Positions 378-35,324 of a stretch of 38,498 bases of DNA are shown here, piece after piece. Location: positions 1 to 38,498 of the forward strand of contig QPGO01000366.1 in NCBI GenBank assembly GCA_008632985.1. The letters run 5' to 3'. Position 1 is the first letter of the stretch. Each line of letters starts with the position of its first letter. Source of the stretch: Psammoneis japonica (lineage: Eukaryota). The notes beneath the pieces are model-generated. The model saw only the letters and a list, made by a program, of their open reading frames with translations. It had not been told where the DNA came from and ran no database searches. The translations under genes were made by a program, and so were the position numbers.

Positions 378-630
378 TGTGAGCTAATAGTTTAATTAGA
401 ACTGAGTTGACAACTGGCCTTGTGATGAACACAGATGAACCAATTGTGATTGCTTTGAATTTCGAAAAGGTGAGAAGACGAACGTCTCAACAAGTGTTTT
501 CCGACAAGTGTTTGAGATGTCTTCAACAATTTGGGGGCCGTACGTGCAAACAATTTGGGGCCATAGAAATCGAATGTTGACAATCGGATGTCGTAGATGT
601 CGCGAGGCATAACAGACGTCAACAGTCACA
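378..630 (-). repeat. 3' LTR (253 bp)
   Basis: Starts TGTGAGC, ends GTCACA; aligns to 6262-6515 with 11 substitutions and 1 indel. Confidence 0.95.
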
Positions 631-640
631 CTCCCTCATT
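631..640 (-). other. Polypurine tract
   Basis: Minus strand reads AATGAGGGAG directly before the 3' LTR. Confidence 0.8.
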
Positions 641-659
641 CGATGAGATGGGTCACCAG

Positions 660-1362
660 CCGAAAAGCAAACGACGGAGCTTATAGAAAGCCGCCCAGGT
701 AGCTGTTTCGTGAAGATGTCGGCTTGTTGATCGGCAGTGCGAATGGGTTGAACTTTGATGCGGCCGTTGGCGACTTCGTTGCGAAAGTGGTGAAGTGTGA
801 CGTTGAAGTGTCGAGTGCGTGGGCACATTTTGGGTGCGCGAGCGATCTCCAGTGCGGCGGAGTTATCCTCGAACATCGTGCAATGCATGATGGGTGTCGT
901 TTTCACATTAATGTTTCTTTCCTTGAGTTCTTCCAATGGGCACATGATGGATTTCACATGTCTGGCAGCTGCAGAGAGAGCAATGCATTCAGATTCTGCA
1001 CTGCTGAGAGCAAACATTGTTTGCAGCTTGGAAGCCCAATGTGGGGGCACGTTTGCAAACTTGACAGCAAAACCAGAGCAAGAGCGAGCTGCATCAGGAT
1101 GGTTTGCTGCGACAGCCTTGTCCCAGTTGCCACAAAAATCAGCATCAACATGGCAATCAAGGCCACACATGTCGTCTGGTTTGATGATGTGTCCTTCATT
1201 TCGGGTGGCCAGCAGATGTCTTCCAATGTGTTTGATGGCAGCGCCGTGAGAAGCTTTGGGATTTGACGTGAAGCGGGCGCATTGGTGAGCAGCATGTGCA
1301 ATGTCACCTCTTGTTGATTTTTCTAAGAAGTTCAGTTTTCCAACACAGAGCGGCAGTTCCAT
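660..1362 (-). pseudogene. pol: Copia RT C-terminus and RNase H (degenerate)
   Basis: GKLNFLEKSTRGDIA, LDCHVDADF (YxDAD), WASKLQT...LSSAESECIALS (EAEYIA), FEDNSAA, QQADIFTK. Confidence 0.93.
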
Positions 1363-2279
1363 GATTCCTGAAAAGGTGCACCATCCGGATCGAGTCCGAC
1401 AAGTTTTGCAGTGCTTGCTGGGAGCTCATGTGTCTTGGTGTTGTTTGAATTCAAGTTGTTGCGAGTGCCAATGAGACCAAGGTCTTGGAGAATGCTGTCA
1501 ACAAGTTGTGGTTGGCACAGTTTGAAAGAGCCATCCGGTGACGTTTCGATTTTGACGCCGAGGTGGTCGCCAATGTCGCCTTCATCGGACACACGTGTGC
1601 GTGTGCCGAGGTCCTTGATGCATTGATCAATCTCAGCATCCGAAGGATCAAACACAAGACCGTCGTCGGTGCAAACCAGGAATGTGGTCGTTCCACGGCA
1701 GAAAACACATTCGTTGAATGAAGACTGTGTGAAACCAATGTCGAGCAGTGCGTTTCGTAAGAACACAAACCACGTTCGTCCAGTGTCTTTTCCACCATGT
1801 GTGTTTTTCAATGCTTCCAAACAATGCTTGTTGCGATCCAAATTGGGAAAGTTGGTGCCTCTTGGCAGTTCCACAAAGGTGGGCCTTGGAATGTCAGCGT
1901 GTGGACATGCCAGTGCAAAGTCAACTTGCCTTGATTTCCATTTGAAGAGGATGGAGAGAACAAGGAACAGACGGATGATAGTCCAAGAAAGTGTTGGAGC
2001 ATGGGTTTCCTCGTAATGTTTTCCTTTCTTCATTTTGTGTCCTCCCAAGTTGAGTCGACTTTTCCACTTGCATGCTTTGCGTGTGCCGATGCGTCGCTTG
2101 CGCTTCATGGACCACATTGCAGGAAGAACAGTCTCACCCTGTGGTGCATCAGCCTTTTCAATAACTCGCCAATGTTCTCCCATCGGCATGGTCTTGGACT
2201 TCTTTAACCACAGCTTTCTTGAATTCGTGAGCATCTGGTTCGCGAAGAGCCTCGTGCATGCAGAGAGTGTCCGGGTCAT
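1332..2279 (-). pseudogene. pol: Copia reverse transcriptase (RVT_2), degenerate
   Basis: WSMKRKR, KSRLNLGGHKM, ETHAP, QVDFALACPHA, HGGKDTGRTWF, catalytic CTDD at 1662-1673 (YxDD), GDHLGV. Confidence 0.93.
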
Positions 2280-2592
2280 TGGAAGCTTTCATGCTGTACA
2301 AAATGGGATCTTCTAGTTGATTTCGGTCGTCGTCGATGAGATGCATGTCCTGGGCAATAGCTTCACAAGTGGTTGCAGCGTATGAGACAACATTTTGTTG
2401 ACGTTGAAGTTGTGACTCAATGGCCCTTTGGGTCATTTGGCTTTACGACCAGAGCGAGTTGTGACCGTTGGTGTTGGCGATCCTGAGTCGGCTGCAGAAG
2501 TTTCAGAAGTCTCGTTTGTTGTTGATGGACCTCCCTCATTTGGTGGAGCAGTGGTCTCTGTTTGATCCGAGTGGCTTAGAGATGATCCTGTG

Positions 2593-3700
2593 TCATTTGC
2601 ATTGTCCCATGTCAGTTGGTGGCAAGTCCGACACATCTGGAGCAGGAGCTGCAGTCACCTTGCGTCTTGACTTGTCAGTTGTTTTTGCAGAGAATCTGAC
2701 GCGTGCTTGTTTCTTGCAACGACACTTTTCTTGCCATGCACTTCGAGGGATGACGGATGAGCCTTTGACAGTCTCAAATGGGTCGTCAAATTTGACATGG
2801 TGTTGTGGAGAGGCAAGTCCTGTTTCAAGGTCAAGGACAAGTGCCACAGATCTGGCGTGTCTGGGTGAAGGTCCGAGGTAAATGCCCACTCGTGCTCTTG
2901 TTTCCCACTTTGGCAGATGAGAGCCTGACTGTGACTTGTTCTTTAACACATGCACAGGACATCCAAAAGAGTGGAAGTGTGCGAAGAGCTCCATTGGAGA
3001 TTCGTTTCCAGGAGATCTGGCGGCATGATTGTGCACGTTGTTGGCATGGCGCACAGCACATGGCCACAAGTGGTGATCAACAGCGTTTGGCCAGCAATGG
3101 TGAGCGTGCACAAGTTGTGTTCTCGCTTGCTCTTGTAGGTCTCTAATGCGTTTTTCTGCTCTGCCGTTCTGAAAGTGTGCATTGACTCCGCAACAGGTTG
3201 TATGCTGCCCTTGTTGACGTCCCGATTTGATGAATGCGTTGTCGCGAATCGTCCATTGTCGGCGTGACAGTGTTGGAGACGAACTCCGAGGGAGCAGGCA
3301 AATGCTTCACAAGCAATTTTGGCGTGCAGCGTTTCTTCTGAGGTGATCGATTTCTGCAAGCATCCGAAGGACAGGTCGCTGTGGTGGTCGACGAAGACCG
3401 TGACGCAGCGACATCGTTGACATGTTGGCATGCCCTTGAGTTGAGCTGTCAGTCCAGGCGTGGTGGCGTCGAGTTGGTCGACAGACACCACTTGGCCGGC
3501 AGCAGTGGCTTTGAAAATTTTGGTTTGTTGTGTGCCCTTGGTTCGCCATGGGCCTTGGTGGCTTTACCATGGCGGCATGCAGCGCACACGGGTACGCGGC
3601 AATCAGCGAGGCGCTTGGGTGGGTCTCCGGAGTTAGCCACATGCTTGTGCGTGAGAATGGCAAGTGTCCGAGTCGGCAGTGCCAAAGTAGTAGTTCGTTG
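2593..3700 (-). pseudogene. pol: Copia integrase with GAG-pre-integrase zinc finger, frameshifted
   Basis: CAACRHGK, VSVDQL, TVFVDHHSD, HCHADNGRF, LWPCAVRHA, FGCPVHVL, GIYLGPSP, SPQHHVKFDD, spread over several frames. Confidence 0.9.
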
Positions 3701-4217
3701 GAGGAGTCAGGTCATCTGGGAATGTTTGGTCCTCGACGACTGGTGCGCCAAAGTTTGCATCCGAGAAGTCCACCGTGTTGGGTGTCGTGGCTTCTGGTGT
3801 AGCCGCAGTTGAGTTTGTAGGCGTTGTAGCAGCTGTTGAGTTGCTGTTATCGATGGCCTCGTTGAACGTGTGACGTGCAGTTGGTGCAGTGGTCTGTTCT
3901 TCAGGTAAGTCTTCAGGTTCGGGTTCGATGATGTGTACATTTTGAAATACTTTAGGTTCTCGTGCTTGCGAGTTGTACTCACGCTCAAATTCGTTGTGCT
4001 TGTCATAGGATGGAGCGGAGCGGAAGACTGGTACGTTTGCCTTGGAGAGCGGCATAGTGCGAGAGTATTTCTCGTCTTGCCATCGAAGTATCGTTCGATC
4101 GTGAAGTGTCTTTTCATAAGTACCATCCGGATTGTTGGAAATTGGTGCGAGTACTTGTGCCAAGTGTTGTGGCGAGAGAAGACGAATTGGAAGCGTAGGT
4201 ACGTAGTACGTGTTCGG

Positions 4218-4260
4218 NNNNNNNNNNNNNNNNNNNNNNNNNNNNNNNNNNNNNNNNNNN
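4218..4260. other. Assembly gap (N run)
   Basis: 43 N. Confidence 1.
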
Positions 4261-4798
4261 TAACTTTGCCCTTGAAGGTCGATTTGGCGTTGCCACTTGC
4301 AGCTTCCACGACAACGTTGACCTCAGTTGGTGGTTCAATGAAGTCGTCTTTGTTGTTGGTCATGCAGTGGGAGGCATGGTTGTCAACTCCGATGTTGAAC
4401 GAGTCTGTGTCGAAGTTGTGATCGTGTTGATCATTGCAGTTACAGCCATGGGAGCATGATGCAGTGTGGCATGAGGCGTGCTGCGATTTGAACCGTGTGA
4501 GTCGGCAAGTGGCTTTGTTGCACATGATGAAGTGTCGGCGTTTTCGTCGGATATAACGCATGTTGGTCTTGAGACAGTTTGGTTTCCTTGGTGGTCTACG
4601 ACTTCTCAGGAGACATTCTGTCATTCGTCGTAACCAGGAACGCAGGAGTGGAAAGGAGTGGAGCCAGTTCAGCAGTTCCACCATTGCGCAGCAGATCATG
4701 TTGAGCGCACAGAAGAATGGCAGGAAGACTGCGCACACACCACAGAACAGCCACAGCCGCAAGTGCAGCTTGACTTGCAATGCGGTGCTGACGAGCAC
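4261..4798 (-). pseudogene. pol: Start of pol: hydrophobic linker plus aspartic protease
   Basis: FDTDSFNIGVDNHASHCM (motif core at 4361-4390) occupies the copia protease D-S/T-G position; same frame as gag, separated by one TGA. Confidence 0.7.
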
Positions 4799-6169
4799 TC
4801 ACTCTTGATCCGATGCGTCTTGTGCGCCAATGTTTGCCACAGAGGCAGTTGGGTCAGATTCGGCCTTGTCCTTGATGGTGGTGCAGTCCTTGGTGAGGTG
4901 AGCAGACCAATGCTCGTGATGTTTGCACCATTTGCAGGGTTTGCCCTCAACAGTCTTGGTGTGTGATTGTCCGTCTTTAGGAGCCGTGTTGCGCCAGGCT
5001 AGCTTTCCGTAGAAGAGTTGTTTCTTGCATCCGTTGGGTGGGATCTTGAACTTCTGGCACTTGTTGTGATTGTTGGAACCCGATTCTTTTGTTTTGTTGC
5101 TCTTGGTGGAGCTCTGAGCATTCCTGTTTCTGCTGCTGGCAGAGCGTGGAGCGTTGCGAGCTTTGTTGTCGCGGAGAGTCTTCACTTCGGCTTGTGGAGC
5201 TACGATGGTTTCTTGCTCTTTCGTTGGTGCCATCCACTTTTCAGATTCGATGAGGATCTTGCACTTGTTTTCAGCCTTGAGCATGAGAGCATGCACGTCA
5301 AGATCCGATCCATCTTCGCAGTCACTCTTGCACTTCTTGATGGACTCGATGAATTCTGAGTCGGTGCACGTGAGGCAAGCCTTGAACACGTTGTTCAGCA
5401 GGTCGGAACTGGTGTGGCCGCGAGCAGCAAGTTTCTTTTCCAAAGATTTGACGTGGTTGTTGAAAGTCTTGATGTTTTGACCGTCAACTGCAGCCATGCA
5501 AGCGTCTGGATTGCCCATTTGGTCACGGATCACCGAGACAGCAGCCCTTGTGTCGACTTGAGCCTTGGACAGAAGAGCTTTGAGGTGGGCCACACCGCAT
5601 TCCTCATCTCCAACAGTGCACTGAGCCTTTTCTTCCGTTGCCATGATGGTCTTGGAGGCCTCGTCTAGGGTGCTCTGGAGACATGCGAGAAGCTGGTGGT
5701 TGTTCTGCACGTTGCGTTGCGCCAGATTGAGGCAAGCAGCAGATGCGGTGCGAATTTGTTCAGCTGAGATTTGTCCACACTCAGTGAGCATGTCCTTGTT
5801 CTCGACTGGCAAAGCAGGAACTGCGCCATGGTTGATGTCAATCGTGAGGACTTCGTTCCAACCATTGGCTTTGGAGCGGACTGCGAGTTCTTCGAGGAAG
5901 ACTGGGATGTTGGGCGATTCAAGACTGAACTGGGTGTCCAACGGCTTGGTCGCGTCTACGAAAACGAGCGCGTCGCCTTTCTTGGTGTGGTCTAAAACGT
6001 CTGCACGGGCCAGTGCTGGTGACTTGGCGAAAGGTCCTGGAGCAGCTGCTGCTGGTGGTGCAGGCATGTTGTTCACAATCGGCTGGACAGCCGCCTGGAC
6101 AGCTTGTGCGATGGCATTGGCGAGCGCGTCAGCGCCGGGCCATGACGAGGTCTTGAAGTTCCTGAGCAC
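4799..6169 (-). CDS. gag: Copia Gag (open frame but heavily missense-mutated; true start uncertain)
   Basis: 456-aa ORF after the 5' LTR with C-terminal knuckle CKWCKHHEHWSAHLTKDC; only one Tyr in 456 aa. Confidence 0.85.
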   Translation of the reverse strand: MLRNFKTSSWPGADALANAIAQAVQAAVQPIVNNMPAPPAAAAPGPFAKSPALARADVLDHTKKGDALVFVDATKPLDTQFSLESPNIPVFLEELAVRSKANGWNEVLTIDINHGAVPALPVENKDMLTECGQISAEQIRTASAACLNLAQRNVQNNHQLLACLQSTLDEASKTIMATEEKAQCTVGDEECGVAHLKALLSKAQVDTRAAVSVIRDQMGNPDACMAAVDGQNIKTFNNHVKSLEKKLAARGHTSSDLLNNVFKACLTCTDSEFIESIKKCKSDCEDGSDLDVHALMLKAENKCKILIESEKWMAPTKEQETIVAPQAEVKTLRDNKARNAPRSASSRNRNAQSSTKSNKTKESGSNNHNKCQKFKIPPNGCKKQLFYGKLAWRNTAPKDGQSHTKTVEGKPCKWCKHHEHWSAHLTKDCTTIKDKAESDPTASVANIGAQDASDQE

Positions 6170-6245
6170 GTCTTTGTGCTCCTCTTGTCAAACGGCGCAT
6201 CTTGTTGGTTTGGAGAGAACGTTGCTGGTTCGATCAAGAACACTT

Positions 6246-6261
6246 TGTCGCAGAGGAAGCG
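6246..6261 (-). other. Putative primer-binding site complementary to the D-arm of initiator tRNA-Met
   Basis: Plus strand 6246-6263 TGTCGCAGAGGAAGCGTG versus eukaryotic tRNA-iMet nt 8-25 TGGCGCAGCGGAAGCGTG (16/18); abuts the LTR. Confidence 0.6.
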
Positions 6262-6515
6262 TGTGAGCTGACAGTTTAATTAGAACTAAGTTGACAACTA
6301 GCCTTGTGATGAACACAGATGAACCAATTGTGATTACTTTGAATTTCGAAAAGGTGAGAAGACGAACGTCTCAATAAGTGTTTTCCGATGAGTGTTTGAG
6401 ATGTCTTCAACAATTTGGGGGCCGTACGTGTAAACAATTTGGGGCCATAGAAATCGAATGTTGACAATCGGATGTCGTAGATGTCGCGAGGCATAAATAG
6501 ACGTCAATAGTCACA
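6262..6515 (-). repeat. 5' LTR (254 bp)
   Basis: TGTGAGC...GTCACA, copy of 378-630. Confidence 0.95.
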
Positions 6516-6520
6516 GATCG
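6516..6520. repeat. Target-site duplication GATCG (right copy)
   Basis: Identical to 373-377. Confidence 0.92.
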
Positions 6521-11039: not shown

Positions 11040-11525
11040 TTGACAGCCACCTTGGCCTTCACCACTTGTTGCACCCACCTCAGTTTGTTCTTGGTCAACA
11101 ATTTTGACTCTCAGGATTTAAGATGCAATCCCTCAACTTGTGGCAATGATTGGGATGTGCCAGCCACCTGGAGGAGCTTGTCCAGTTGGAATGCCACAGC
11201 CTTGGGATTCACCATTGGCTTGGGTGCCATTTTGATTCTGGTGCTGACATGATTCACCACCTTGCAAGTTCTGTTGGCCACCACAGCCTCCACAGCCATG
11301 ACCACCACAACCACCTTGATTACAACAGTTTCCTTGTTCTCAACCTGGGTGTCCACCTTGGCCACCACAACCTTGTGGACCACAACCTTGACAGCCGCCT
11401 TGGCCTCCACCACGGCCATTGTTGCATCTACCTCAGTTTGTCCTTGGCCAACAATTTTGACTCTCAGGATTTAAGATGCAATCCTTCCACTTGTGGCAAT
11501 GACTGGAATGTGCCAGGCATCTGGA
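11040..11525. repeat. Direct repeat ~135 bp (11040-11172 and 11389-11525)
   Basis: Both contain caacaattttgactctcaggatttaagatgcaatcc...acttgtggcaatga; duplicates the zinc-knuckle segment. Confidence 0.88.
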
Positions 11526-16132: not shown

Positions 16133-17717
16133 TCATCTGCGATTGCTGCGTTCGTGTTGAGCCTTGGCGGCTTTCTTCAAGTAAGGTTGCATCTCCTTCT
16201 GCCTCTTCGTTCGACGCTTTTCGGCAACAGAAATCTTGTTCTCCACGAGATTCTTTAGTTGGTCCATCTCCTCTTTGCTCACTTCTGGCCAGCATTTTGG
16301 ATACCACGGTCCATCTAGCTCAGCGACTTCATCCGCGCTACGTGCACCGTTTTCTTCGTTCCACAAAACGCTTAATTCCGTCCCATACCCACGGGGTATT
16401 ACAGAACTTCCCGGGCCATACCGTATGGAATACCTTCGATATACCAGAGCCTTGTCGTGGTCGTGGTTATGGCTTTGTACCACACTCCGTTCAAACGGGA
16501 CCGTTCGATGAAAAACCCATCTCTCGTGAAATATGATGTCTCCTCGTTTCAAATCATAAACTCGCCTGGTCTCTTCCATGCGTCGATGGATATGCGGTGC
16601 CTCCACCTCCAGGTTACATGTACCTGCACCAATTCGGTTCTCAAACATGTCAGCCACTGACTGAAATCCTTCTGTCGGGAACGTAAGAGTAGAACCTATT
16701 GCACGGTGAGCATCATGACGCCATGAGGCACTGTGTGAGCCTACCGCCAGAGCGAATCCACCCCCATTCGCAATGGGCATATCGTCGATGGCTATCCAGG
16801 CATTCACACCGGGAGAAGAGGCAGTTGCGGGCCAGAAGCCTAGATCATCGACGTGCCAACCACAAACGTACTCTTCGTCGTCTTTTGTAAGAAAAATATC
16901 CCTAACGCGCAAGCAAGAGAAAGCTTAGCATGAACAACAAGATGGCTTCGAGCAACACACGACAAATTAGACAAACAATTTCGTCACCTCATTAGGCGCA
17001 GGGTTTGGTTCTTGTCAGTTGATAAGCCAAGAAGATCAGCCGCAAACTCTGGTACAGCAGAGGTGAGAGCCACTTCTCTGAATGCAGATAAATCGCGGCT
17101 TTGTCTCTCATCGTCAGAAGGTCCGACATTGTCCTTTTCTATTTCACCGTTTTCGTCGTTTGAAGATGGAGGATCAAGAAAAGCAGCTCCCATTCGAACC
17201 ATGTGAAACTGTGTATTGGATCGTTTCTGATTCCGCTTCTCGTCAACAATGCGTTGCTCACTAACGAGCTGGGCAGAAGCATGTTCTAGTCGTAGAAGCA
17301 TATCGTCCGTCAATAGGCCCCTGATAGCAACGACACCATCTTTTGCAAAGGCGGATCTGATATCGTTCGTAACTAGCTTCCACTTCCTACAGTCACATTA
17401 TGTATGATTGGATCATCAATTTCTGGGGCCTTGCCCAGGGGAGCTCGGTATTTTAGTCGCGTCTCGAATGCATGAAAAAGCTCATCATCGTTGGTTACAA
17501 TAGCTACAGCCACTGCAACAAGAAGTACAGCAAATGCCATGGAAAGCGCCCATTTCGAATTGCCAAATAAAGCGATTCGATCTGTCAATTCGTACAGAAA
17601 CTGCGATCTCTTGTCCTCCTCGTCTTCAAACAATGAATCTTCCTCCTCCTCTTCCGAAGACAAAACGTCATGGGAAGAATCATCGCCACTCTCGTCTCCA
17701 CTGCTGCCATCATCCAT
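16133..17717 (-). CDS. Phytanoyl-CoA dioxygenase (PhyH)-like 2OG-Fe(II) oxygenase with N-terminal TM segment
   Basis: FAKDGVVAIRGLL, GWHVDD (HxD), VNAWIAIDD, GSH, GDIIFHERWVFHRT; intron 16902-16987 joins in frame (MR|DIF); one probable indel near 17390; start at MDDG assumed. Confidence 0.82.
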
Positions 17718-22026: not shown

Positions 22027-22712
22027 AGATTGTCCGCAGCCATACGCCACTTATCGCTACCTGTCTCATTACATGCTGTCTCTGCGGTCAAGACGATTGA
22101 TCTCCCTCTGAAGAGTCGTGAGTGTTAATTGCCAAGGATTCCCGACTCTCGTCAATTACGATGCAGTAGGCAGGAGCAGTGACCAATAAGATCGCACTAC
22201 CAAAATTGCAAAAGGCGAGAACTGTTGGACAAAGTTGATGCTTGTTGGACAACACGCTAAATGAACAGACCCTACAGAATGAGTGTAAAGGTACGAGCTT
22301 TCATCATGTATTTGAAAAACGATTAGCTTCAAAGTCGCCATATGCCTAATTTCATAACACATTCACACAGATTATCCGCAGCCATACGCCACTAATCGCT
22401 ACCAGTCTCATTGCATGCTATCTCTGCGGTCAAGACGATTGATCTCGCTCTGAAGAGTCGTTAGTGTTAATTTGCAAAGGGTTCCCGACTCTCGTCAATT
22501 TCGATGCAGTAGGTGGGAGCAGCGACCAATAAGATCGAACCACATAAACTACAAAAGGCGAGAACTGTTGGACAAAGTTGATGCTTGTTGGACTACACGC
22601 TGAATAAACAAACCCTACAGAATGAGTATAAAGGTACGAGCTTTCATCATGTATTTGGAAAAACAGTTAGCTTCAAAACTCGCCATGTGCCTAACATCCT
22701 AACACATTCACA
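22027..22712. repeat. Tandem duplication, 2 x ~342 bp (22027-22368, 22369-22712)
   Basis: Direct alignment, e.g. caaaaggcgagaactgttggacaaagttgatgcttgttggac in both; roughly 85-90% identity by eye. Confidence 0.95.
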
Positions 22713-28850: not shown

Positions 28851-29068
28851 GAATGAGTAGATGTGACTCCTCACTCTCTTGCGTCTATTTTGCATCTACT
28901 AGAACTTTGTGTCAAACTGCTGGCGGAGGCCACACCGTTCTGTGCGGGTCCTGAAAATGCAAACCTGCATTATGTGAAGTGCTGTCTCACGACATTTGCA
29001 TAAATCCGGGTTCCAACATCTTTTCCCATCTTACATAGAGTTTGTTGCATCAGACCAACTGACCGGCC

Positions 29069-30247
29069 ATGGCGTCAAGCGAGCATCCACCACACGCAAA
29101 CGTGTCTTTCAACATCCTGGGTGACGCATTTGTCGATATTTTTTGTTTTCTAGAACGTGATTTTCCGGAGCGAGGAGGCGATGCTCTTTTGGAAAAGCCA
29201 GTCGGTCTGATGGCTGGTGGATCTGCTGTCAACACTTCAACCCACTTGGCGAGTCTCGTCACCAACACAAGCGAGAAAAGAACGAAGTCACAGGAAGCTG
29301 TATTTTCCGTCAATCTACAGACGGTAGTAAATCCAAGTGATGATTATGGACGCCTGATAATGAATCATGCTAAAACACACGACTTTCACATGACGAATTG
29401 CTTTACTCCTGGTTCGAATGCTTCAACCGGACACTGCATTGTCATCGTGAGTGGCGGAGAGCGAACGTTTATGACTCATCGAGGTTGTGTGGAGGTATTC
29501 AGAGCATCTCAAATAGATGTGCAAGAACTAGTCGGACCTGTAGTAACGAATCCTGAACAAGAGTGTCACATTCACATTGCTGGCTACTACAACATCCCGT
29601 GTTTCTGGGGGGCTCTAAAAGCGACACTTGAGGAGGTTGTTAGAAAACGAGAAACTTGTGGATTAAAAACCGCAATTTCTTTGGTCCCCCAGTTCGACGC
29701 TACTGGAAAATGGGATGGCAAGATACTGGAACTCTTTCCGCTATTAGATTTCTTAATTCTCAGTGAAACGGAAGTCAGTCAAATTGTGAGATGCAACCGA
29801 CAAGCTACTGACAGCAACTCTGCTCATAGCATTTTGGATTGGACCGACTTCTTTGACTCTAAAGGTCCTAATGTGTGTGTTATTGTCACATTAGGGGCAA
29901 GAGGAGCTGTAGCATTTCGTGGCAAGACGATTCTGCAGAGGCAGGATGCACCCTTCGTTGATAACCCTATCGATCCAACAGGAGCTGGCGATGCTTTTGC
30001 TGCTGGATTCCTTTATGGTATTTGGAGCTGGAGGTCCAAAAATGACATTAGACACGAGCTGATGTGGCCTGATGATGCGATTCGGGAAGGACTGGTTTTC
30101 GGATGCGGCGTAGGAGCTTCCAGCGTTATGACAAGAGGAGCTAGCGTACCATCAGCTCCAGCCTTGTCAAGACTTACGTGGACGAAGCAAACAAACTATA
30201 GATCATTTATAGGATCACAGAAGAAGAGATCGGTAACAAAAATCTAG
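29069..30247 (+). CDS. PfkB/ribokinase-family carbohydrate kinase
   Basis: GDAFVD, AGGSAVNTS, VTLGARGA, DPTGAGDAFAAGFL (PfkB signature 2); last ~25 aa may be frameshifted. Confidence 0.92.
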   Translation: MASSEHPPHANVSFNILGDAFVDIFCFLERDFPERGGDALLEKPVGLMAGGSAVNTSTHLASLVTNTSEKRTKSQEAVFSVNLQTVVNPSDDYGRLIMNHAKTHDFHMTNCFTPGSNASTGHCIVIVSGGERTFMTHRGCVEVFRASQIDVQELVGPVVTNPEQECHIHIAGYYNIPCFWGALKATLEEVVRKRETCGLKTAISLVPQFDATGKWDGKILELFPLLDFLILSETEVSQIVRCNRQATDSNSAHSILDWTDFFDSKGPNVCVIVTLGARGAVAFRGKTILQRQDAPFVDNPIDPTGAGDAFAAGFLYGIWSWRSKNDIRHELMWPDDAIREGLVFGCGVGASSVMTRGASVPSAPALSRLTWTKQTNYRSFIGSQKKRSVTKI

Positions 30248-33200: not shown

Positions 33201-34893
33201 ATTATTTGCGTTTTAAAGTCCTCACCGGCTTTCTGGGCTCCACCACGTGCTTCAATGAATTCCGCAGGGTCCTTGATCCCACCAGGCAATGTGGCTATGG
33301 CAATTTCAACCGCATACCTGTCGCAGGTCTTTGACAAGATGTTTCCACTGCATAGACGTTCCATCGCGTTGATTCCGGCTTGATCCGCGTCAAGGCATAG
33401 CACGATTCGGCCTGTTTAGAAGTGACAAGGGGTGAGTCAGCTGCATCCGTACGAATCATCACACAATGATACTTCATTTTTCTAAAGCGCTTACCACCGT
33501 GTGATCCAACCGTTCTCGCAGCGTTTCCAATTTGTTGCTCCGATACAGCGGTTCCCATGCTAGCGACAACTTGTTGAATCCCAACTTCCGACAGGGAAAT
33601 CGCATCCATGTAACCCTCCACCAGAACGATGAAATTCGATTGCTCCTTCTTGCTTGTGGCGGCGGCTTTTGCATATTGGAGAGCAGCTTGCGCAACGTGC
33701 TGCCCAAACAGCAAATGACTCTTTTGAAATACCAACGACTCGGGGCTATTTAAATACTTTGGAGCCTTGAAGTTGGTTGTTTTGTTGCTTGAAGGTTCGT
33801 CTGACAGAACGCGTCCCCCAAAACCAAGCACCTTGTTTCCTCGTGCATCAAAAATAGGGACTACAAGGCGATTACGGAAGCGATCCATTAAATTTGAGTA
33901 ATCATGGCTCGCACTTGCATTTCCATCTTTCTGCAGCAAAGAGTCAGAGCCTGTTCTATTCTGATGCTTGCCCCATTCCGATTTCTTGTACGAATTGCTA
34001 ATCCAGCGTCAACAATTTCATCCGGTGCAAAGCCTAACTCACAAAGTCGATTCACGAGGCTCCCGTCGCCCCATTTTTTACCTGCCAATGATGACGAATA
34101 AAAAGCATCTGGCGCAAAGCCCATGGCATACGTTCGGACCGTGGCAGGTGACAGACCACGTGACTGAAGATAGAATCGTGCCACACCCGCTGATGGTAAC
34201 GTCATGAGACAATTCGCGTAAAAGTCTGCAGCTGCCGCATTGCGAGCACAATCGTTCCTTCTTGGCCCGCATTGCTTGGCGCTCTTCATCACTCATTCTA
34301 TCATTCGTACTGCTGCTTTGTAGTTCAAAAGAACCATCCCCATATTCTTTCGCCACGTGCGCAATTGCTTGGCCATACGTCATTGGTTCTCCCTGCACGT
34401 CGCTGATTTGCCGTACAAACTGAAATACATCTCCGCCCGCACCGCAGGCAAAGCACTTGTATATGCGTTTCGTTGAATCCACATTAAGAGATGGATTATG
34501 ATCGTCGTGAAACGGACAACGAGCGACAGCACTCGTTTCACTCCTTCGTCGAAATTCTGGCAGACCGTAGCTTTCAACAACTCTCACGATATCAACAGTT
34601 TCCTTGAGCCTCTCCACTTCTTCTGGGGGCATCCAGTAACTCTTCTGGTTGTCGGGTTGCTCAATATTTATTCTAGATTTTGATACAAAAACTGATACAG
34701 AGCCTCGTGGCTTGTGCATGCCTCGACGAGAGCCGATGAACTTCGACAGCGGTGCAAAGGAGCAGCCTACTGTCAGACTGTAGGCAAACGTAAAAAGTCC
34801 AACATATTTTAGAATCCGAAACGTCTCTCTCTTACGACGCCTTCTTCGACGTCGCTTATAATCATTGGCAGTCGATTCAATCATACAAGGCAT
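30289..34893 (-). CDS. dnaG: Bacterial-type DNA primase (DnaG), probably plastid-targeted, with long C-terminal extension
   Basis: CHC2 finger CPFHDDHNPS...YKCFACGAGGDVF; YLQSRGL; DRFRNRLVVPI; GFGGR; KYLNSPES; TOPRIM VEGYMD...LDADQAG; KDPAEF; introns 33412-33494 and ~32495-32594; N-terminal ...LTVGCS|FAP; several apparent indel errors. Confidence 0.9.
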
Positions 34894-35324
34894 CGAACAC
34901 TCTGTATGTAATGAGGTGAAGCGACGGCTTCAGGGCTCATGGTAGTGCCGGCAGGTCTATCTACGCACCGCACAAAGATCGCACAGACGACGGGTGGCAG
35001 ATTTGCAAAGCAAGATTAGCATTTCTATTACTTTATTCACATATTAATATGTTTATGTTAGTGTTCTTCTTCCCTAAATAAAGTTGACATGACCGTTATT
35101 TGATGACGCGGCACGAAATCGGATCTGCTTTGTGCGTGCGTGCCAGCCTGCCATCCAGCCTGCTCATGATGGATCTTCTCGACATTGTCTTGTGTTTTTG
35201 AGTTTCGGGTTTGGCAACGAAGACGACCATATCATAGTCTCAAGAGTAACCGAGGAGGAAACTGAAACGGGAAGTTCAAAGTACCAGACCGAGCCATAGG
35301 ACGCTTTGTGACTCTTTTCAAACG

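Follow-up and report, generated by a model that had tools for sequence, protein, structure and literature searches.

The 16 bases that follow the 5' LTR of a retrotransposon from Psammoneis japonica are, judging from sequence comparison, probably the minus-strand primer site of a Ty1/copia lineage that would take its primer from the 5' part of initiator tRNA-Met, the tRNA having been cleaved after position 24 or so. We also lean towards a wider reading, in which a deep and widespread algal (diatom-type) copia lineage would use as its primer a fragment of about 23 nt from the 5' end of mature initiator tRNA-Met, the cleavage falling between D-stem and anticodon stem. In that wider reading the site would also record the chemistry of the tRNA, being kept opposite G24 to G10 and U8 and free opposite a methylated G9.

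The window, that is the whole stretch of DNA that was analysed, is a contig of 38,498 nucleotides (QPGO01000366.1), and alignment of its repeats together with reading of the minus strand revealed one LTR retrotransposon of Ty1/copia type on that strand, at 378-6515. All features of the element are given here on the minus strand and in the order in which they are read. The 5' LTR (6262-6515) is 254 bp long, running from TGTGAC to CTCACA, and forms a direct repeat with the 3' LTR (378-630), which is 253 bp long and also ends CTCACA; an identical five bases, CGATC, flank both LTRs as a target-site duplication, at 6516-6520 on the 5' side and at 373-377 on the 3' side. The primer-binding site CGCTTCCTCTGCGACA (6246-6261) adjoins the terminal CA of the 5' LTR, and it is followed by a gag-like open frame of 422 aa (4799-6067), by a pol region that is split into several open frames (619-4699), within which the reverse transcriptase (RT) is recognised as RVT_2 by Pfam (1332-2279, E = 7e-26), and by a polypurine tract GAATGAGGGAG (631-641) that abuts the 3' LTR.

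The position of the gag-like frame agrees with that of the gag frames in intact relatives, and its best Pfam match, to DUF3584, is below threshold (22.6 bits against a cut-off of 31) and not meaningful. Membership of Ty1/copia rests on the presence of a copia-type RT (RVT_2), alongside which are found TG...CA LTRs, a 5-bp duplication and a purine tract. The broken frames of the element, where 43 N fall in the pol region, gave no match to an integrase family; the distance from the end of the RT frame to the end of the 3' LTR is 954 bases, which leaves no space for an integrase downstream of the RT. The run of 43 N (4220-4262) lies inside pol, and part of the protease/integrase region is unreadable there.

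The copy of the element in the window is dead, with broken frames and a heavy loss of TpA. When the two LTRs are aligned they differ at 12 columns, in 10 of which one copy has TA and the other TG or CA, and at one place there is CA in one copy and TG in the other. The observed/expected ratio of TpA is 0.22 within the element (378-6515) as against 0.40 in the remaining window, and together with the differences between the LTRs this fits hypermutation of TpA to TpG or CpA. Since the LTR differences follow such a pattern, LTR divergence is useless as a clock for this element.

A first-pass annotation of this DNA had picked out an 18-mer at 6246-6263, which on the minus strand reads CACGCTTCCTCTGCGACA and which occurs a single time in the window, where 0.08 occurrences are expected with up to three mismatches allowed. 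The first two letters of the 18-mer, CA (6263-6262), close the LTR, and only 6261-6246 make up the site itself. Within it, +1 to +13 (6261-6249) pair with G24 to C11 of tRNA-iMet, +14 (6248, an A) mismatches G10, and +15 and +16 (6247-6246) face G9 and U8. Thirteen to 15 contiguous bases match one place in a tRNA, for which the chance is about 60 registers x 4^-13, and a match of that length exactly at the LTR border is far beyond chance.

The same annotation had claimed that there is no primer-binding site of the TGG type behind the 5' LTR, and this is borne out over the first 60 post-LTR bases, from which TGG is absent. It had further named a better match to a tRNA 3' end, or a self-priming sequence, as findings that would speak against a D-arm site, and neither was found. 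The longest complement in the LTR to the first 30 post-LTR bases is a 7-mer, which starts 16 bases in and not at the border. Two other kinds of priming were accordingly rejected for the element of the window, a 3'-end tRNA primer site for want of a TGG after the LTR, and self-priming of the Tf1 type, the LTR complement being only a 7-mer and away from the border.

Relatives of the element were sought through the RT. A search of representative proteins gave 15,479, 25 were aligned with the RT of the window, and the alignment was scanned against metagenome contigs, which gave 501 confirmed relatives; the best 80 of these 501 represent 78 loci, with an RT that is 35-45% identical to that of the window. 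A search of viral contigs with the single RT protein of the window gave no match. Over the 423,912 bases of the 78 loci the exact 13-mer CGCTTCC[ACGT]CTGCG occurs in 47 loci in the same orientation as the RT and in none in the opposite orientation, where chance would give about 0.03 occurrences per strand, and in the 47 relatives it takes the form CGCTTCC[T/C]CTGCG. Relative to the RT it is located 4.0-5.7 kb upstream in some loci and 0.9-1.9 kb downstream in others, the downstream cases being contigs that run from a single assembled LTR into the internal region (circularly permuted or tandem), and the distances in the window, about 4.0 kb and 0.95 kb, agree with both classes of location.

Forms with a one-base indel are found in three more loci, L128 having an extra C in the part that faces the D-loop and L147 and L149 lacking one T. 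Every one of the 10 loci in which the sequence upstream of the RT extends for 4.7 kb or more carries the site (eight exact, two variant). The remaining 28 of the 78 loci are without it; L153 and L184 start within the gag frame, and the other 26, which are short or run past the 3' LTR into other DNA and have too little DNA on the upstream side, were treated as untestable rather than as negatives, as a group and not locus by locus. The LTR end can be located precisely in L122 and L186, each of which has two copies of the repeat: the one on the internal side stops exactly before the motif, whereas unrelated DNA comes after the other. Pairwise identity of the RT among loci with the motif ranges from 36 to 100% with a median of 48%, and the flanks of the site cannot be aligned among the relatives. 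The conservation of the motif at the same position in sister elements, which had been put forward as a check on the original proposal, is thus upheld, both by the exact matches and by the loci that reach far enough upstream.

Many of the relatives, including L122, L130, L135, L143, L144, L147, L150, L162, L172, L177 and others, are circularly permuted contigs that contain one LTR and the internal region, and in which the two ends overlap exactly over 110-127 bases or there are long exact repeats; such contigs could have arisen artificially in the assembly of multi-copy elements, or they could represent tandem copies or one-LTR circles. A feature of the coding region is that gag and pol are in the same frame with one stop codon between them in all seven of the intact-looking relatives that were inspected (L130, L150, L153, L184, L187, L191 and L198), an arrangement that suggests that pol may be produced by stop-codon readthrough, and in an eighth relative, L189, decay is too advanced for the arrangement to be judged.

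The extent of the conserved block was determined from a positional profile of 42 non-redundant junctions, including that of the window, from which near-duplicate flanks had been removed. The positions of the 13-mer are fixed by the way in which loci were selected, and the free observations are +8, +14 to +16 and the flanks only. The dinucleotide before the site is CA in 41 of the 42 junctions and TA in one, and the spacing between LTR and site is zero in all 42. Within the 13-mer, variation is restricted to +8, which is T in 37 and C in five and never A or G, and which faces the D-loop base that varies in the tRNA. At +14, where the window has A, 37 of the 42 junctions have a C that pairs with G10, and an A that pairs with U8 is found at +16 in the same number. 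Between these, +15 is unconserved (A 17, T 17, C 5, G 3) and lies opposite G9; the C that the window has here may be a product of TpA-to-CpA change and not a real pairing base.

Past +16 the information is at most 0.37 bit and nothing else is conserved within 45 bases downstream, and on the LTR side conservation is confined to the last nine bases. The block has been held constant across a deep lineage amid diverged surroundings, and its limits are those of the D-arm (G24 to U8, except opposite G9). In yeast initiator tRNA position 9 is m1G, and a freely varying +15 would fit a G9 that is methylated and does not pair.

The tRNA side of the pairing was approached by searching IMG/VR contigs with the pattern CGCAGNGGAAGCGTG, which gave at least 120 DNA stretches with at least 121 matches, and tRNA genes were predicted in these with ARAGORN. 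Among the matches listed, 29 distinct tRNA genes have the pattern in their D-arm, two odd, over-long predictions having been left out; 28 of them are tRNA-Met(CAT) and one is tRNA-Pro(TGG), in a set that comes from viral and giant-virus contigs, was selected by the pattern under test and may not represent the host. The D-arm of the 28 tRNA-Met(CAT) genes among the matches listed is ...GGCGCAGNGGAAGCGTG, in which the variable D-loop base N is A in 16, T in six, G in five and C in one, and tRNA position 17 is absent. In 23 of these 28 listed genes the T-loop is GATCGAAAC, which we take to be the mark of a eukaryotic-type initiator tRNA-Met.

Against the A-form of this D-arm (...TGGCGCAGAGGAAGCGTG) the 18-mer of the window is complementary at 17 of its 18 bases, and the sole mismatch is opposite G10. 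The complementarity to the D-arm of initiator tRNA-Met, which the first-pass annotation had put at 16 out of 18, holds, and the higher figure applies to tool-predicted tRNA-Met(CAT) genes from viral contigs and not to those of the host. Such a D-arm exists and is nearly specific to tRNA-Met(CAT) among pattern-selected genes of viral contigs, which does not imply that the host encodes it. ARAGORN predicted no tRNA gene in the window and, across the 78 metagenome loci, one spurious gene only. Four IMG/VR stretches (L035, L036, L052 and L054) contain initiator-type tRNA-Met(CAT) genes in which the CATA of the anticodon loop is immediately followed by an intron-like insert some 25-30 bases long.

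Pairing with an internal stretch of a tRNA can prime only once the tRNA has been cut just 3' of that stretch, and a short 5' fragment follows from this. As proposed here, the site would pair with the D-arm of initiator tRNA-Met from position 8/10 to position 24, and a 3'-OH opposite the first post-LTR base would need a cleavage of the tRNA after position 24 or thereabouts, where the D-stem meets the anticodon stem. The first base copied in the standard scheme is the last base of U5, and since the CA that ends the 3' LTR is intact next to the target duplication, the last base of the primer would be G24 under that scheme; with tRNA position 17 absent, a primer that ends at G24 would be a 5' fragment of 23 nt. 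The reverse transcriptase would extend this primer of about 23 nt into U5, and the plus strand would later copy the primer back to about U8, by which the site would be regenerated.

The nuclease step could take either of two forms, a 5' tRNA fragment that is made beforehand or an annealed tRNA that is cut inside the particle, and if the tRNA were uncut U25 and G26 could pair with the CA of the LTR as well. The anatomy of the element, the adjacency to the LTR, the complementarity to initiator-type tRNA-Met genes and the conservation are observed, while the use of a fragment as primer, the place of the cut and the agent that makes it are inferred. The 5' fragment of tRNA-iMet of 23-25 nt that the first-pass annotation had envisaged keeps its main feature, a short 5' fragment being what internal pairing entails, and its length is narrowed to about 23 nt by the terminal CA of the 3' LTR.

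There are other ways in which the block might be explained. It may be a true primer site for which the primer is some other RNA with the same stretch, whether a further host tRNA that has an identical D-arm or a small RNA of unrelated origin, and one of the 29 pattern-bearing tRNA genes among the matches listed is a tRNA-Pro(TGG) and the tRNAs compared are not those of the host. We consider this unlikely, as 28 of the 29 are Met(CAT), 23 of these with an initiator-type T-loop (again among the matches listed), whilst the conservation stops at U8 and G24, the limits of the D-arm, and the variable base is found opposite the variable D-loop base; furthermore, in the text available from two sources, Ty1/copia elements usually prime from initiator tRNA-Met (PMC8515867, PMC6317226). 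It would seem highly unlikely that the conserved block is instead a cis element for another step, such as the packaging of tRNA or RNA, dimerisation, or the binding of integrase or nucleocapsid, with priming achieved by other means. An auxiliary pairing of this kind does exist in yeast Ty1, whose template has additional boxes that pair with both the D arm and the T arm of initiator tRNA, and sequence data show no 3'-OH at the site. However, adjacency to the LTR is the defining place of a primer-binding site, and here the spacing is zero in 42 of 42 junctions, and in three cases (window, L122 and L186) the LTR end is confirmed by comparison with a second copy. Moreover, the block of the window is not followed by a TGG site, its LTR offers no self-primer complement, and the 45 bases downstream contain nothing else that is conserved.

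A resemblance by chance in one decayed element would be easier to entertain if the window were taken by itself, where the copy is mutated and has one mismatch, and where the tRNA sequence first compared with it was a general one of animals and plants. This explanation is refuted by the occurrence of the exact 13-mer on the RT strand of 47 of 78 distant relatives as against none on the other strand, and its probability is now negligible. A primer site for the 5' part of initiator tRNA-Met is the reading that is carried forward in the comparisons below.

Priming from half-tRNAs (the Hemivirus type) has been described, in the text available of three sources, for Drosophila copia and yeast Ty5, for Osser, Bryco and part of Gymco-II in plants, and for Copia-28_PHord of Puccinia (PMC6317226, PMC10886601, PMC8515867). 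According to these same texts, half-tRNA systems share with the element of the window a primer site that touches the 5' LTR, that complements an internal part of initiator tRNA-Met and that needs a 3'-truncated tRNA. Half-tRNA sites pair with the anticodon stem-loop, and the cut is placed in the anticodon stem (Neumann 2019, PMC6317226) or in the loop (Kojima 2024, PMC10886601) in the parts available of these papers. The site of the window differs from them in that it pairs with the D-arm (8/10-24), so that the predicted cut is about 15 nt further 5' and the predicted primer about 23 nt long. The first-pass annotation puts the length of half-tRNA primers at about 39 nt. Complementarity to an internal part of initiator tRNA-Met is found against tool-predicted genes of initiator type, not those of the host, and it covers positions 8-24(26), the D-arm, and not the anticodon stem-loop. 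Because pairing with the anticodon stem-loop is absent the lineage would not be a member of the anticodon-cut class, and it may be described as a variant of half-tRNA (Hemivirus-type) priming with a different cut site.

In the accessible text of PMC6317226, PMC10886601, PMC8515867 and a Candida review, tRNA-fragment priming in copia elements involves the anticodon stem or loop only, and the tRNAs that take part are, again in the text accessible, tRNA-iMet, Ile, Tyr, Asp and Arg. Neumann 2019 (PMC6317226) distinguishes, in the part available, three kinds of primer, namely a whole tRNA, a tRNA cut in the anticodon stem and self-priming, and the ICTV text, as far as it is available (PMC8515867), tells copia genera apart in part by the extent of the tRNA that serves in priming. 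The term "third priming mode", which had been suggested for the window, is a fair one for a new cut site within the known priming by tRNA fragments, but it does not amount to a new principle.

Elements with 3'-end priming of the Pseudovirus type (Ty1, most plant copia and, with TGGTAGCAGAGC, metazoan GalEa), as described in the portions available of the literature, use the same tRNA species and have a site in the same place next to the LTR. The site of the window differs in that it has no TGG at its start and is not complementary to the 3' end of the acceptor. Self-priming of the Tf1/sushi type, and the plant TAR and Tcn1 lineages, likewise do without a whole tRNA as primer; in contrast to the Tf1 type, the LTR of the window has no complement of the post-LTR bases, the best being the 7-mer found 16 bases in.

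Small RNAs of about 22-24 nt that derive from the 5' part of tRNAs form the tRF-5 class, and both their size and the region in which they are cut match the predicted primer, though none from initiator tRNA-Met came to light for a diatom in the material covered. For Phaeodactylum, the available Table S3 of Rogato 2014 (PMC4247016) gives fractions for Met(CAT), with initiator and elongator pooled, at 18, 19, 20 and 31-35 nt that are all at most 0.13, and the text available of that paper flags no fragment pattern for Met(CAT). Fractions as small as these in the available table imply that most reads are of other lengths, which is a lead only (PMC4247016). The available text of Maumus 2009 on the CoDi elements of diatoms (PMC2806351) has nothing on tRNA or primer sites. 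More generally, no D-arm primer site is described in the full-text literature searched, as far as the texts were available, including PMC2806351, PMC6317226, PMC5445492, PMC8515867, PMC4139406 and PMC10886601, the original papers on copia, Ty5 and Osser lying outside that scope.

If the proposed mechanism is true, the use of the first 23 or so nt of a tRNA as primer would add a cut site to the classification of LTR-retrotransposon primers, and a third class of tRNA-derived primer would stand beside whole tRNAs and anticodon-cut halves. It would furthermore link the replication of retrotransposons to the pool of 5' tRNA fragments, the functions of which are much debated. For annotation, the exact motif CA|CGCTTCCYCTGCGC marks the 5' LTR borders of the lineage in algal and metagenomic assemblies, in which programs that test tRNA 3' ends only will report "no PBS" for these elements. 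On the D-arm reading, the initiator tRNA of the host would be expected to complement CGCTTCCTCTGCGC exactly with G10 to G24 of its D-arm and to have A as the variable D-loop base.

Finally, the window has some features outside the retrotransposon. Two pairs of direct repeats, at 11066-11525 and 22027-22662, consist of copies of 107-191 bp that are 91-92% identical and 342-353 bp apart. On the minus strand at 33295-34929 there are two adjacent frames with parts of a DnaG-type primase, a CHC2 zinc finger followed by the catalytic core and Toprim, which are probably one gene split by an intron. Near the primase frames are a PfkB-family kinase on the plus strand (29063-30247) and a PhyH-like frame on the minus strand (16133-16924).
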